From positions 7,753 through 71,752 of the forward strand of contig CACJRK010000003.1 in NCBI GenBank assembly GCA_902595795.1: a stretch of 64,000 nt of DNA, in the 5' to 3' direction. Source of the stretch: an uncultured Pelagibacteraceae bacterium (GTDB taxonomy: Bacteria > Pseudomonadota > Alphaproteobacteria > Pelagibacterales > Pelagibacteraceae). Each line of letters opens with the position of its first letter. The first letter of the stretch is position 1. The notes beneath the pieces are model-generated. The model saw only the letters and a list, made by a program, of their open reading frames with translations, did no database searches and had not been told where the DNA came from. Made by a program: the position numbers and the translations under genes. Shown piece after piece: positions 7,296-14,227 of this stretch.

Positions 7296-7951
7296 TGATT
7301 AAAAGAAAAAATATTATTAAAATTGCTATTGACTCACCAGCTGCCGCAGGAGCTGGAACATTGGCAAAAGCGATCTCTAAACATTATAATCTTTTTTATT
7401 TAGATACTGGAAAAATTTATAGAATGATTGCTTATCTTAAAATTAGATTTCCAGAAAAATTTAACCAAAAATTTATCAAAACAAAAATTAAAAATCTCAA
7501 AGTAGAAGATCTTACAAATAAATCTCTATTATCAGATGAAGTTGGAACAGAGGCATCAATTATATCAAAAGTAAAAAAAACAAGAAAACTTGTCCATTCT
7601 TTTCAACTAAATTTTGCTTACAACCCTCCAAAAAAGTACAAAGGATCATGTCTAGATGGGCGAGATATTACCTATAATATTATACCAGATGCAGATTTTA
7701 AATTTTATATAACGGCCAATTTAAAAACAAGAGCTATAAGACGATATAAAGAACTAAAGGTTCTAAATAAAAAAATTTCCTTACAAGAAGTGCTTAAAAG
7801 TATCAAAAAACGTGATAAAAGTGACTTTAATAGAAAAGTTTCACCATTAAAGAAAACTAAAGATTCAGTGTTGCTAAATACATCGAAACTGACTAAAAGA
7901 GCGTGTTTTTTAAAAATTAAAAAAATTATAGATAAGAAAATTAAAACTTAA
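7295..7951 (+). CDS. cmk: Cytidylate kinase (atypical P-loop)
   Basis: IAIDSPAAAGAGT, LDTGKIYR, DGRDI, RD..D..R..SPL; between aroA and rpsA. Confidence 0.88.
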   Translation: MIKRKNIIKIAIDSPAAAGAGTLAKAISKHYNLFYLDTGKIYRMIAYLKIRFPEKFNQKFIKTKIKNLKVEDLTNKSLLSDEVGTEASIISKVKKTRKLVHSFQLNFAYNPPKKYKGSCLDGRDITYNIIPDADFKFYITANLKTRAIRRYKELKVLNKKISLQEVLKSIKKRDKSDFNRKVSPLKKTKDSVLLNTSKLTKRACFLKIKKIIDKKIKT

Positions 7952-9692: not shown

Positions 9693-9983
9693 TTGGCTAT
9701 TGTAAAATCAAAGCTTTTAAAACAACTCTCAGATAGCTACCCAAATTTTCTCAAAAAAGACCTAGAGAAATTTACCAATATTATTCTAAGTGAAATTAAA
9801 CGAGCACTCAAAAGAGGTGAACGTGTTGAGCTTAGAGGTTTTGGTGTATTTTCAACTAATATTCAAAAATCTAGGATATCAAGAAACCCGAGAACTGGAG
9901 AAAAAGTTAATACACCTCAAAAAAAAACAATTCACTTTAAAATGTCAAAAGACTTGTTTAAAAAATTAAATAATGAAGAATAA
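9693..9983 (+). CDS. ihfB: Integration host factor beta subunit (TTG start)
   Basis: RVELRGFGVF, RNPRTGE, HFKMSK; after rpsA. Confidence 0.9.
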   Translation: MAIVKSKLLKQLSDSYPNFLKKDLEKFTNIILSEIKRALKRGERVELRGFGVFSTNIQKSRISRNPRTGEKVNTPQKKTIHFKMSKDLFKKLNNEE

Positions 9984-10656
9984 AACAATATTTGTTGCTT
10001 GTGATACTTCAAATCTTAAAGAAATTAAAAAAATAATAAGCCATATTCAAACTAATAAATTGCAGATTATTCCAAAATTTGGATTACAATTTTTTTACTC
10101 TAAAAACGGCAGAAAATTTTTAGAAAATTTTAAAAATGACTTTTGGTTAGATTTAAAAATAAATGATATTCCCCAGACTGCCTTATCAGCAATAGATAGT
10201 CTTAAAGATTTAAAAAAATGTAGATTTATAACTGTACATGCAAATGGTGGTATGAAAATGCTTAAGGCTATTAAGAAAAAAGTTAATAAAAATATAAAAG
10301 TACTTGGGGTTACAGTTCTGACAAGTCTTAACAATAGTTCTCTTAAAGAAATAGGTTATACAAAATCAGTAGAAAAATTAGTACTAACTCAAGCTAATCT
10401 TATCAAAAAATCTGGATGTGATGGAGTAGTTTGTTCTGCTCATGAAGCTAAAATGATAAGAAAAAAACATAAAAACTTATTTATTGTAACTCCAGGAATA
10501 AGATTGCCTAAAGATGATATAAATGATCAATTAAGAGTGATGACGCCTAATGATGCTTTTAAAAATAAAGTTTCTGGTATTGTAATAGGAAGATCATTAA
10601 TAAAAGGAAATATCAAAAATAATATTCGAAAATTAATTGACCATTTGAACAAATGA
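9973..10656 (+). CDS. pyrF: Orotidine-5'-phosphate decarboxylase
   Basis: DLKINDIPQT, VTVLTS, VTPGIR, VIGRS. Confidence 0.93.
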   Translation: MKNKTIFVACDTSNLKEIKKIISHIQTNKLQIIPKFGLQFFYSKNGRKFLENFKNDFWLDLKINDIPQTALSAIDSLKDLKKCRFITVHANGGMKMLKAIKKKVNKNIKVLGVTVLTSLNNSSLKEIGYTKSVEKLVLTQANLIKKSGCDGVVCSAHEAKMIRKKHKNLFIVTPGIRLPKDDINDQLRVMTPNDAFKNKVSGIVIGRSLIKGNIKNNIRKLIDHLNK

Positions 10657-11282
10657 TCAAAGGTTCTAAAATTTGTGGGATATCAGATCTCGAAACTCTT
10701 AATTTTATTATCAATCATCAATACCCACCTCAATTTATTGGATTTATTTGTAATTATAAAAAAAGTTCAAGATATGTTGAAATTGAAAAGCTTAATGAAT
10801 TATTAATATTAGATAAAAAAAAATCTAATTTTGTAGCAGTACTGGTTAAACCTAATGAGGAAATTTTAGAAAAAATTAAGCATTTGCCCTTTGATTATTA
10901 TCAGATTTATGATTGCATGCCTGACGAAATAAAACAAATTAAAGAAACTTATAATAAAAAAATTATTACCGCTTTAACTATAAAAGAAGAAAATGATGTT
11001 CAAAATTACCATTTGTTCTCTGAGATAACAGATATTTATTTGTTTGATAGCAAAGGTTACGAAAAAAGTATGTCTTTTAATCATAAGCTTATTCAAAAAA
11101 TAAAGATTAACAAACCATTAATGATAGCAGGTGATATACAAATAAATGATGATCTTGAAAATTATAAAAAAATAGCAGATATTATAGATATATCTGGGGG
11201 TCTAGAGACTTCTGGGATAAAAGATAAATCCAAAATTGATATATTTTTAAATAAGATAAAACAGGTATACAATGAAACTTAA
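10653..11282 (+). CDS. trpF: Phosphoribosylanthranilate isomerase
   Basis: KICGI, LFDSKG, DISGGLE..GIKD; precedes trpBA. Confidence 0.88.
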   Translation: MIKGSKICGISDLETLNFIINHQYPPQFIGFICNYKKSSRYVEIEKLNELLILDKKKSNFVAVLVKPNEEILEKIKHLPFDYYQIYDCMPDEIKQIKETYNKKIITALTIKEENDVQNYHLFSEITDIYLFDSKGYEKSMSFNHKLIQKIKINKPLMIAGDIQINDDLENYKKIADIIDISGGLETSGIKDKSKIDIFLNKIKQVYNET

Positions 11283-12501
11283 AAGAGGAATTCCATTAAT
11301 TGATCAACATGATCAATATGGTTTTTGGGGTGGTAAATTTGGAGGAAGTTTTATTCCTGAAACTTTAAAAAAACCAATTGAAGATTTAACAAATGAATTT
11401 AGAAAACTAAGAAAAGATAAAAAATTTCTTAAAAAAAGAGATTATTATTTTAAAAATTATATAGGTGTACCTACCTCATTTATCAAACTTTATAATTTAA
11501 CAAATCATCTAGGTGGTGCACAAATTTGGACAAAAGTTGTCTCCGAGGCTAATGGGGGTGCGCACAAAATATACAATGCAACTGTTCACGCACTGATATG
11601 TAAAGCAATGGGTAAAAAATATATAGTTGGTGATACAGGAGCTGGTTATGCCGGTAAAATGTTAAGTATGGCAGCTAAAAAATTTGGTCTAAAATGTAAA
11701 ATATTTATGGGCGCAAAGGATATTAAAAGACAAAAGCCTAACTGTGATGCAATAAGAAAAAATGGTGCTGAAATAATTCCTGTTTTTTCAGGAAGTCAAA
11801 CTTTAGTTGATGCTGTAAGTGAATGTATGAGGTACTGGGTATCAAATTGTGACAATACTCATATGTGTGTTGGAAGTACTGTTGGTCCAAATATATTTGT
11901 TAAAATTTGTGGCTGGAGTACAGCGCAAATTTCAAGAGAATTAAAACTACAATTAAAATCAGAATTTAAAAAAATACCAAAAAAAATAAAATTGATTAAC
12001 TGTGTTGGGGGTGGAAGTTCAGCATATGGATTTTGGAGCGAATTTATTGACTATAATAAAAAACATATTGAATTAATTGGCGTGGAGGCAGGCGGACCTA
12101 AAAAATCAAAACTGCATGCAGCTCCATTAAGTTGTAATACTAAAATTGGAATTTTACATGGAGCTGCATCTTATGTATGTCAAAATAAAGAAGGACAAAT
12201 AAATGAAACAGAATCTATAAGTGCTGGTTTGGACTACCCTGGGGTAAGTCCTATGCACTGTTTTTTAAAGGATACAAAAAGAGCAAGATATACTTATGCA
12301 ACAGATGAAGAAGCATTAAACGCACATCAAATGGTAACTAAATTTGAAAATTTGAATCCTAGCTTAGAACCAAGTCACGCATTTGCAGAAGCAATTAAAA
12401 TTGCTCCTAAATTGAGTAAAGATACGATTATAATCGTTAATTCTTGTGGTGATGCAAAAAAAGATAGAGATATTTTAAGAGAGAGATTAGGTAAAAAATA
12501 A
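11272..12501 (+). CDS. trpB: Tryptophan synthase beta chain (divergent active site)
   Basis: FGGSFIPETL, GAHK (PLP lysine), CVGGGS, SISAGLDYPGV, LEPSHA; trpF-trpB-trpA order. Confidence 0.9.
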   Translation: MKLKRGIPLIDQHDQYGFWGGKFGGSFIPETLKKPIEDLTNEFRKLRKDKKFLKKRDYYFKNYIGVPTSFIKLYNLTNHLGGAQIWTKVVSEANGGAHKIYNATVHALICKAMGKKYIVGDTGAGYAGKMLSMAAKKFGLKCKIFMGAKDIKRQKPNCDAIRKNGAEIIPVFSGSQTLVDAVSECMRYWVSNCDNTHMCVGSTVGPNIFVKICGWSTAQISRELKLQLKSEFKKIPKKIKLINCVGGGSSAYGFWSEFIDYNKKHIELIGVEAGGPKKSKLHAAPLSCNTKIGILHGAASYVCQNKEGQINETESISAGLDYPGVSPMHCFLKDTKRARYTYATDEEALNAHQMVTKFENLNPSLEPSHAFAEAIKIAPKLSKDTIIIVNSCGDAKKDRDILRERLGKK

Positions 12502-13301
12502 TGAGTTCTCTAATTAATCAAGCTTTTCAAAATGCTCAAAGCGAAAATAGACCAGCTTTGTTAACTTATACAGTAGCTGGAGACAATACTAAAAAAAAAT
12601 CCTTGGAAATATTAAAATCAATTTCAAATTATGCAGATATTTGTGAATTAGGCTTTCCTCACAACACACCTATTGCTGATGGTGGTCAAATACAAACTAG
12701 TGCTTATCGTGCCATTAAAAATGGAATTAAAATAAACGATGTATTTTCAATTGCTAAGGATTTTAAAAGTAAGAGAAAAAATAAACCTATTATTTTAATG
12801 GGCTACTATAATATGATTTTTCAGTATAATGAAAATAAGTTTTTAGAAAAATGCAAAATATCAAAAGTAGACGGATTAATTATTGTAGATTTACCTTATC
12901 CAGAAAACAGAAGTTTTGCTGCTAAATGTAAAAAAAGAGGAATTAATTTTATTCAATTGGTATCACCAACTACATCTAAGCTTAGGTTAAAAAAAATAAT
13001 CAAAGATTCACATGATATGATTTACTACATTAGTATGCTTTCAACTACAGGAGGGAAATTAAAAGTTTCACCTAAAGAAATCCTGGAAAGATATAGTAAA
13101 ATAAAAAATCAAAATAAATCTAAAAATGTTGTAATTGGATTTGGTATTACTGAAAAAACAATAAAATCATTAAAAAAAGCTGATGGATTAGTTGTTGGAA
13201 GTGCAATTTGCAAAGAAATTACAAATGCAATTAAAAAGAGACAAAATCCTGTCACAAATGTTACTAGTATAGTTAAAAGATTAAAAAATAAAATTAAATG
13301 A
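12501..13301 (+). CDS. trpA: Tryptophan synthase alpha chain
   Basis: ELGFP..P.ADG..IQ, LMGYYN, IIVDLP, GFGI, VVGSA. Confidence 0.92.
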   Translation: MSSLINQAFQNAQSENRPALLTYTVAGDNTKKKSLEILKSISNYADICELGFPHNTPIADGGQIQTSAYRAIKNGIKINDVFSIAKDFKSKRKNKPIILMGYYNMIFQYNENKFLEKCKISKVDGLIIVDLPYPENRSFAAKCKKRGINFIQLVSPTTSKLRLKKIIKDSHDMIYYISMLSTTGGKLKVSPKEILERYSKIKNQNKSKNVVIGFGITEKTIKSLKKADGLVVGSAICKEITNAIKKRQNPVTNVTSIVKRLKNKIK

Positions 13302-14227
13302 ATTGGATTAAAAAAATTATAAAAGCAGGTGAAAAAATTAAAACTGCTATTCACGAAAGAGCTTCTAAAGAGGAGATAGCTAAAAGTGTTTGGACGAGTT
13401 GTTGTAGGGGGCCAATTTTAAAAAAAGACTTAGAGCAAAATTTATGGGTGTGTACAGATTGTAACAAACATCACCGTATTAAACCAAGCCAGAGATTTAA
13501 TATATTGTTTGGTGAAAATAATTATGAAGTATTTAAAACTCCTATACCAAAAGATGATCCCTTAAATTGGACAGACTCAAAATCATATAAAGATAGACTA
13601 AAAAATGCGCGTAAAAAAACTGGCATGGACTGTGGAATGATGGTTGTTTGTGGAACAATTAATAATATTAAAATCACAGCTGTCGCTTCAGATTTTGATT
13701 TTTTAGGAGCTTCAATGGCTGCTGCTGAAGGTGAAGCGTTTTTATATGGAATACAGCATGCTATTGAAAATAAAACTCCTTTTTTATGTATTAGTGCAGG
13801 CGGTGGAATGAGAATGATGGAGAGTTTAATATCTCTATCGCAAATGACAAGAACAACACTTGCAATTAATGAACTAAAGAAAAATGGACTACCTTATATA
13901 GTCTGTATTACAGATCCTACAGCAGGTGGTATTACGGCTTCTTATGCTATGCTTGGAGATATCCATATAGCTGAACCAGGTGCATTAATTGCTTTTGCAG
14001 GAGCTAGAGTTATTCAAGGTACAGTAAAAGAAGAATTACCTGAAGATTTCCAAAAAAGTGAGTATGTTGAAAAAACTGGATTTGTTGATTTAATTGTTGA
14101 ACGTAAAGATCTTGCCTCTAAAATTGGAACCTTATTATCAATATTGTTAAAAAAAAATTCTGATATAAGTTCTGAACAAAATGAAACTTCAGAAAATAGT
14201 CAGTCGCTTACAAGAGCTGCATCCTAA
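13298..14227 (+). CDS. accD: Acetyl-CoA carboxylase carboxyltransferase beta subunit
   Basis: GGMRMMES, PTAGGITASYAMLGD, AEPGALIAFAGARVI. Confidence 0.93.
   Translation: MNWIKKIIKAGEKIKTAIHERASKEEIAKSVWTSCCRGPILKKDLEQNLWVCTDCNKHHRIKPSQRFNILFGENNYEVFKTPIPKDDPLNWTDSKSYKDRLKNARKKTGMDCGMMVVCGTINNIKITAVASDFDFLGASMAAAEGEAFLYGIQHAIENKTPFLCISAGGGMRMMESLISLSQMTRTTLAINELKKNGLPYIVCITDPTAGGITASYAMLGDIHIAEPGALIAFAGARVIQGTVKEELPEDFQKSEYVEKTGFVDLIVERKDLASKIGTLLSILLKKNSDISSEQNETSENSQSLTRAAS

Follow-up and report, generated by a model that had tools for sequence, protein, structure and literature searches.

Remodelled indole site and altered intersubunit link in a probable tryptophan synthase of SAR11 bacteria

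Can the beta subunit of tryptophan synthase dispense with the glutamate that activates indole and still make tryptophan? TrpB is a textbook model of pyridoxal phosphate (PLP) catalysis, substrate channelling and allostery, as well as a major platform for the production of non-canonical amino acids; although the catalytic Glu and the Gln-His loop are regarded as invariant in it, one of the most abundant groups of marine bacteria has replaced them. The gene considered here is the trpB of an uncultured SAR11 bacterium (Pelagibacteraceae), located in a stretch of 64,000 nucleotides (the window; positions 7,753 to 71,752 of contig CACJRK010000003.1, assembly GCA_902595795.1), and its product belongs to a group of SAR11 sequences termed type A (Table 1). 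A preliminary description, made from the sequence alone, had proposed a naturally re-engineered tryptophan synthase, possibly with a different amino-acid donor or nucleophile. The remodelled site proved to be fixed and under selection in SAR11, while the altered donor or nucleophile was not borne out. The substitutions and their fixation, purifying selection, a concomitant change in TrpA, sole-copy status and retention of the pathway were all observed, and together they make it very likely that type A is a genuine, working tryptophan synthase beta subunit that uses indole and serine and has a remodelled indole site and a remodelled allosteric link.

Table 1. Positions in the window of the trp genes, of the exchangeable cassette and of diagnostic residues.
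Feature	Position	Strand	Basis
trpF (phosphoribosylanthranilate (PRA) isomerase)	10653..11282	+	Pfam PF00697, E=1.2e-18; open reading frame (ORF) list; 11-nucleotide (nt) overlap with trpB
trpB, SAR11 type A TrpB1 variant, 409 amino acids (aa)	11272..12501	+	TIGR00263, 387.2 bits; best match in PDB is TrpB, E=3e-100; clade support 100
trpA, putatively co-evolved alpha subunit	12501..13301	+	Pfam PF00290, E=9e-66; start overlaps trpB stop
Swappable trpB-trpA cassette	11254..13283	.	blastn of window against L114 (G087:C1:78500-85500)
PLP Schiff-base Lys, residue 99 (Lys87), retained	11566..11568	+	GGAHK; K in 227/227 type A
Asp, residue 121, replaces indole-activating Glu109	11632..11634	+	codon GAT; D in 227/227 type A, E in 43/43 canonical
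Tyr-Ala, residues 126-127, replace Gln114-His115	11647..11652	+	Y in 225/227, A in 225/227
Val, residue 179, replaces Lys167 (partner of alpha-Asp56)	11806..11808	+	V in 227/227; within modelled alpha-beta interface
Asn-Ile-Phe-Val, residues 207-210, replace His195-Pro196-Tyr197-Pro198	11890..11901	+	alignment
Ser, residue 250, replaces phosphate-loop Asn236	12019..12021	+	S in 227/227; role of Asn236, PMC11027755
Asp305, residue 321, retained	12232..12234	+	partner Arg141 retained as well
Cys-Gly-Asp-Ala-Lys, residues 392-396, replace Ser/Cys377-Gly-Arg379-Gly-Asp381	12445..12459	+	only 379-381 type-specific
Alpha residue 56, Thr instead of Asp	12666..12668	+	T in 105/110 type A TrpA; D in 33/33 canonical

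Residues are numbered according to E. coli TrpB on the basis of a MAFFT alignment, and HMMER alignments to solved TrpB structures served as a second check. The 227 unique sequences of type A were compared with 43 canonical TrpB1 sequences (30 from alphaproteobacteria, 3 canonical SAR11 sequences, 9 representatives of distant clusters and E. coli TrpB). A column was counted as replaced when it was at least 90% conserved in the canonical set and the conserved residue occurred in less than 5% of type A; this applied to 53 of the 159 columns conserved to that degree and to 17 of the 61 invariant ones. At the level of motifs, AETGAGQHG reads GDTGAGYAG, TLKDA reads TLVDA, KREDL reads KVVSE, GPHPYP reads GPNIFV (neither Pro196 nor Pro198 varies in the canonical set), GGGSN reads GGGSS and GRGDKD reads GDAKKD. 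The catalytic Glu109 within the AETGAGQHG loop, which marks TrpB1, is thus missing from the window protein.

The alignments bore out every change that had been listed in the preliminary description for the catalytic loop (E109D, Q114Y and H115A) and for the KREDL, GPHPYP and GGGSN motifs, as well as the retention of Lys87, Asp305 and Glu350. The proposed charge swap at Arg379/Asp381 was found as R379D and D381K, accompanied by G380A, and Asp379 is present in 225 of the 227 type A sequences. Only the emphasis on Ser377Cys was over-read: Cys occupies this position, whose residue forms a hydrogen bond with the pyridine N of PLP, in 21 of the 43 canonical sequences and in all four types of SAR11 TrpB (types A to D, see below), so that it was withdrawn from the set of rewired residues. 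Further changes that had not been recorded before are K167V, A108G, N89Y, H82N, R148A, R202G, Q205T and G310S. The PLP-binding core is conserved, with Asn236 to Ser as the only change in it; Asn236 contributes to binding of the PLP phosphate (PMC11027755), and its replacement by Ser is a mild change. Invariant in type A are His86, Lys87, Thr110, Gly111-113, Gly116, Arg141, Gln142, Asn145, Gly232-Ser235, Asp305, Tyr306, Glu350 and Lys382.

The structural roles of the replaced residues are taken from the literature. The carboxylate of Glu109 forms a hydrogen bond with N1 of indole and stabilises the formation of the C-C bond, Phe306 and His115 flank the indole subsite, and Gln114-His115 end the carboxylate loop and form one wall of that subsite (PMC9512447). 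The side chain of Gln114 forms hydrogen bonds with Asn145 and Arg148 in the closed (R) state only, a Gln114Ala exchange destabilises this state, and the Arg141-Asp305 pair locks it (PMC9512447). Since type A has Tyr114 and Ala148, both partners of the Gln114-Arg148 contact are lost, and since it has Ala115 next to Tyr114, the indole pocket has been trimmed on one side, where a new aromatic ring lies adjacent.

A single burst of substitutions on the type A stem would have rebuilt three parts of TrpB. The first part would be the indole-activating and subsite residues, with Glu109 to Asp next to Ala108 to Gly, and with Gln114 to Tyr and His115 to Ala; the second, the network that stabilises the closed state, in which Gln114 and its hydrogen-bonding partner Arg148 are both replaced; and the third, the allosteric link between the subunits, where beta-Lys167 to Val is combined with alpha-Asp56 to Thr. 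The core of PLP chemistry (His86, Lys87, Thr110, Gly111-113, Gly232-Ser235, Glu350 and Lys382) and the closing bridge of Arg141 and Asp305 are intact. The shorter Asp109 would reach N1 of indole in a repacked pocket and thereby assume the role of Glu109, catalysis and channelling would still work, and closure and alpha-beta coupling would rest on other contacts, with an allosteric coupling that is probably unlike that of the Salmonella model.

The changes go far beyond what chance would produce. Among the TrpB1 cluster representatives, AETGAGQHG is near-invariant in about 100 others that show the motif, and GDTGAG[YMF] is found only in SAR11 clusters. The type A set of motifs occurred in no other TrpB1 group searched, and no type A-like TrpB was detected outside SAR11 in 1.8 billion cluster representatives, where identity falls from 77% directly to 44%. 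In a maximum likelihood (ML) tree that included SAR11 and other alphaproteobacteria, type A is monophyletic with a support of 100, its stem measures 1.34 changes per site, and the substitutions are fixed in this large clade; branch lengths within it do not exceed those seen for ordinary TrpB of alphaproteobacteria. The median pairwise ratio of nonsynonymous to synonymous substitution rates (dN/dS) is 0.03 at a dS of 0.30, which indicates strong purifying selection. The long stem and short internal branches, the fixed residues and the low dN/dS therefore point to a single burst of change, after which constraint was normal and strong. Sister genomes that lack the substitutions had been named as grounds for abandoning the proposal. 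Most sisters have them, and they are absent from about 14% of the genomes of the same genus, which carry a different trpBA cassette.

Two early-branching type A loci, L123 (genome G016) and L124 (G121), have the intermediate motifs GDTGAGM[AF]G, Val167, GGGSS and Cys at alpha-56, and the TrpA of L123 has Glu at alpha-60; both loci should be useful for ordering the type A substitutions. In two draft genomes, the type A trpB contains one in-frame TAA (G131:C1:242770-243993 and G129:C1:43700-44386), which represents either a sequencing error or genuine inactivation.

The alpha subunit encoded next to type A TrpB retains Glu49, Asp60, Thr183, Tyr175, Gly211, Gly213, Gly234 and Ser235 in 109-110 of 110 unique sequences. 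As these comprise all of its catalytic residues, indole is still expected to be produced beside type A TrpB. The salt bridge between alpha-Asp56 and beta-Lys167 is absent: beta-167 is always Val, and alpha-56 is Thr in nearly all sequences (Table 1). The other three SAR11 types have Lys at beta-167 and an acidic residue at alpha-56 and thus preserve the acid-base pair, both sides of which are lost only in type A. In studies by Weyand and Schlichting and by Rowlett and Miles, beta-Lys167 reportedly pairs alternately with alpha-Asp56 and beta-Asp305 during intersubunit signalling. Modelling of the window TrpB-TrpA complex yielded a score of 0.91, while the highest-scoring of three controls had 0.00 (the mark is attained by 58 of 80 solved complexes and by 2 of 110 mismatched pairs), with a contact agreement of at least 76% between runs and a pLDDT (predicted local distance difference test) of at least 88 for the partner. 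The modelled interface is canonical, with beta helix H6 and the N-terminal segment packed against alpha loops 2 and 6. It should be noted that such a result may reflect likeness alone, because tryptophan synthase complexes have already been solved. Thus, the window TrpB, which adjoins trpA, may form an alpha-beta complex via helix H6 and the COMM domain, as modelled.

Whether this protein supplies the cell with tryptophan can be judged from the genomes that encode it. TrpB2, a homologous PLP enzyme, scores over its cut-off in only 9 of the 151 Pelagibacterales genomes searched, so that most of the complete SAR11 genomes searched yielded no TrpB homologue other than type A; one example is G041, which consists of a single contig and encodes type A (GDTGAGYAG, TLVDA, GGGSS) and no TrpB2. 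trpD is present in 102 of the 103 high-quality genomes of the order. In one genome that is 96% complete (G150), no trpB match better than E=5e-5 was found, although trpD is present. Strain HTCC1062 has one trpB in the same gene order, which was concluded to be functional (Kagan et al. 2008, Genome Biol 9:R20, PMC2395257), and for HTCC1062 and HTCC7211, artificial seawater supplemented solely with pyruvate, glycine, methionine and vitamins serves as the growth medium (PMC8437039). Because of the sole TrpB copy, the retained trpD, the catalytic TrpA and the prototrophy of the isolates, the simplest reading is that tryptophan is made from indole and serine, and type A very probably converts indole and L-serine to L-tryptophan. 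The same four observations stand against the different donor or nucleophile that had been proposed at first.

Several points weigh against type A being a genuine tryptophan synthase beta subunit. With the NCBIfam equivalog model for trpB (TIGR00263), the window protein reaches 387.2 bits (E=8.5e-116, profile positions 4-382 of 385), which narrowly misses the cut-off of 392.45 bits and is thus marginal, whereas other alphaproteobacterial TrpB proteins reach 560-655 bits with the same model. No enzyme assay of any type A protein was found in the literature. Salmonella E109D is said to be impaired with indole and to have an altered nucleophile preference, a result ascribed to Brzovic et al. in 1992, and full activity with Asp109 would presumably require compensation for that reason. 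In seawater RNA libraries from two studies, contigs cover the whole trpF-trpB-trpA stretch with at least 85% identity; these are Logan contigs from libraries that each contain 5-8% of the exact words, which neither proves transcription nor gives levels, and carry-over of DNA is possible, so that they lend weak support to expression. Lastly, this genome also encodes a canonical-looking TrpB2, and type A therefore need not be its sole route to tryptophan, unlike the situation in most SAR11.

The TrpB2 of this genome (L002, 1102-2463, on contig C22 of G000) has 453 aa, the motif TETGAGQWG and a score of 724 bits with PRK12391, and its gene is flanked by a short-chain dehydrogenase-like gene on one side and by a gene of unknown function on the other. 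Across the order, TrpB2 occurs alongside types A, B and C. The idea that TrpB2 is the real enzyme and has freed type A to drift was rejected as a general explanation, in view of its presence in 9 of 151 genomes and its failure to track the TrpB1 type.

The different cassette found in some sister genomes leads to the question of where type A came from. Four forms of TrpB are found at the same locus across Pelagibacterales. Type B is fully canonical and nests among alphaproteobacteria. Type C (L114-L119 and L166-L169, 394 bits) has CESGAGQH[YF], LEPMA[AG], Asp305 to Gln or Thr and alpha-Asp60 to Glu, and type D (L125-L127, 462 bits) has CETGAGAHL and Asp305 to Asn. Of the 159 conserved columns, 43 are replaced in type C and 41 in type D. 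Glu109 is changed only in type A; types C and D keep both Glu109 and Lys167, and no less surprising than E109D is their loss of Asp305, which contributes one half of the closing salt bridge. Of the 77 sampled genomes of the same genus, 11 had type C in place of type A; one locus (L170 of G119) was assigned to type C on the basis of 36% identity alone.

A close relative with type C (G087) illustrates how the forms replace each other. Its HimD, PyrF, AccD and FolC are 93%, 82%, 93% and 85% identical to those of the window, compared with 35% for TrpB and 29% for TrpA. At the nucleotide level, identity is 80% up to position 11253 and 85% from position 13284 onwards, with a single weak match of 115 nt in between, and similarity breaks off no more than 20 nt from the start of trpB and from the end of trpA, while a type A genome is collinear with the window throughout. 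The clean breaks at both borders indicate that the beta and alpha subunits have been exchanged as one unit, as expected if each trpB-trpA pair is co-adapted, and the swap between close relatives shows in compact form how two subunits can move together in this way. A genome with 76% completeness and 2% contamination (G094) contains two type D trpB-trpA loci with similar flanks (L125 on C12 and L126 on C10) and a partial TrpB2; the two loci could be explained by duplication, by a mixed assembly or by two strains.

Type A may have evolved rapidly in place or may have been acquired from an unknown donor. It is conceivable, though on balance doubtful, that a trpB-trpA cassette was acquired from a deep-branching donor and then spread among SAR11 lineages via homologous recombination in the conserved flanks, a scenario that concerns the origin of type A and not its function. 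The free ML search placed type A outside the alphaproteobacterial clade and type B inside it, the best matches in PDB are a reconstructed ancestor and an archaeal TrpB instead of a proteobacterial one, the branching order within type A departs from the genus and family labels (for example, in G121), and swaps at the exact start of trpB and end of trpA do occur in SAR11. Nevertheless, a clade of type A, type B and the alphaproteobacteria was not rejected in an approximately unbiased (AU) test (p 0.84), the constrained tree even had a higher likelihood, and long-branch attraction can account for the deep placement. A donor-like sequence was also missing from the 1.8 billion cluster representatives, with the same gap in identity between 77% and 44%.

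A stronger version of the functional proposal would be that type A represents a different active-site solution, with Asp doing the work of Glu109 in a repacked pocket, no Asp56-Lys167 switch, and kinetics or substrate scope unlike those of any characterised TrpB, and that SAR11 populations maintain at least two non-interchangeable cassettes (types A and C) at one locus by recombination and selection. This combination is regarded as unlikely; if true, it could entail, for example, a very high affinity for serine, suited to a cell in which glycine is the only source of serine, or a wider range of nucleophiles. Taken by itself, an important difference in the chemistry or substrate range of type A seems improbable to a similar or somewhat higher degree, and a new substrate range has no support in the present analysis.

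Less plausible still is a complete change of function, in which type A would mainly catalyse another beta-replacement, with O-phosphoserine, threonine or cysteine as donor or with another nucleophile, and tryptophan would come from another route or from a minor activity of the enzyme. Exchange of the residue at position 109 alone does alter the nucleophile scope of engineered TrpB proteins, and functional shifts usually leave a long stem in the tree that gives way to strong constraint; the residues replaced at 109, 114 and 115 are, moreover, those that set nucleophile activation and the geometry of the carboxylate loop (PMC9512447). The arguments against this view are that no TrpB homologue other than type A was found in most complete SAR11 genomes searched, which retain trpD and a catalytically intact TrpA, that cultured strains require no tryptophan, and that streamlined genomes keep the trpF-trpB-trpA operon with a canonical modelled interface to the alpha subunit. 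O-phosphoserine would be an unlikely donor in particular, because SAR11 reportedly lacks the phosphoserine pathway, as Tripp et al. are said to have described in 2009. Taken together, these arguments make a change of function very improbable.

Decay under relaxed constraint, with the changes as tolerated damage from AT-biased, nitrogen-sparing streamlining, can practically be dismissed: many replacements do tend towards AT-rich codons, with Gly, Ala, Arg or Pro giving way to Lys, Asn, Ile, Met, Ser or Tyr at a locus with 28% G+C, but the dN/dS of 0.03 and the invariance of the new residues in the 227 sequences speak against a pseudogene, His115 to Ala uses a GC-richer codon, and AT bias or nitrogen sparing is not a sufficient cause, because type B loci (33-34% G+C) and an unrelated alphaproteobacterium with 32.5% G+C (L160) keep fully canonical TrpB with 634-644 bits.

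Compared with known systems, type A as a working tryptophan synthase is closest to canonical TrpB1 (TIGR00263; the Salmonella and E. coli enzymes, PfTrpB and LBCA-TrpB, 5ey5), with which it shares the fold-type II PLP domain, the length and 37-44% identity. Also in common are Lys87 and His86, the GGGS phosphate loop, Thr110-Gly113, the pairs Arg141-Asp305 and Glu350-Lys382, Tyr306, linkage and translational coupling to trpA, and the canonical alpha-beta interface as modelled; the differences lie in Glu109Asp, Gln114Tyr, His115Ala, Lys167Val, Asn236Ser, Arg148Ala, Arg379Asp/Asp381Lys and NIFV for HPYP at 195-198. TrpB2 (TIGR01415/PRK12391) differs in that it keeps the catalytic Glu, has 453 aa and is unlinked to trpA. 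It is reportedly the O-phosphoserine-dependent stand-alone TrpB, a view credited to Busch et al. in 2014. The window protein has only 86 bits with TIGR01415 (cut-off 518.85) and, with 409 aa and its place in the trpF-trpB-trpA operon, is not a TrpB2; in the tree rooted on the TrpB2 of this genome, it branches with TrpB1 to the exclusion of TrpB2. Laboratory variants at the Glu109 position, such as E109D (Brzovic et al. 1992) and the engineered tyrosine synthase TmTyrS1 (PDB 8egy, which is among the PDB homologues of the window protein), have one or few substitutions in a canonical background, and their reaction is impaired or redirected. Type A, in contrast, has a natural background with dozens of fixed co-substitutions and an apparently essential gene.

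The trpB cluster of SAR11 has been described as unusual and phylogenetically distinct (Kagan et al. 2008, PMC2395257). That study dealt with distinctness only, without an analysis of residues, of the active site or of co-change in TrpA, and without alternative cassettes. No paper on a natural Asp109 TrpB was found in the literature, and a search for 'tryptophan synthase' with E109D likewise yielded none. Thus, the clade was already known, while the rewiring, the co-change in TrpA and the cassette polymorphism appear to be undescribed. Type A offers a natural, pre-compensated scaffold for work on Asp in place of Glu109, on the control of channelling without the Asp56-Lys167 pair and on substrate scope. 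Automated annotation and the prediction of auxotrophy may mislabel type A in SAR11, because it scores under the NCBI cut-off for trpB.

The ORF list and Pfam confirmed that the gene is part of the canonical trpF-trpB-trpA operon, within the gene order himD, pyrF (9973-10656), trpF, trpB, trpA, accD (13298-14227) and folC, in which neighbouring genes of the run overlap by 1-11 nt. Pfam assigns to the trpB product only the general PALP domain. Among solved structures, this product most closely matches the reconstructed ancestral TrpB 5ey5 (E=3e-100) and the TrpB of Pyrococcus, and Salmonella TrpB (E~1e-78 with HMMER) aligns with it from end to end without large gaps. The nearest relatives, with 88-96% identity, come from SAR11 single-cell genomes and from isolates such as HTCC8051, and thousands of relatives with 85-93% identity are contained in the protein database. 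A database protein of 607 aa (P0004) combines a PRA isomerase (PRAI) domain with a PALP domain and is 91% identical to the window TrpB; it represents either a trpF-trpB fusion or an artefact of gene calling across the 11-nt overlap.

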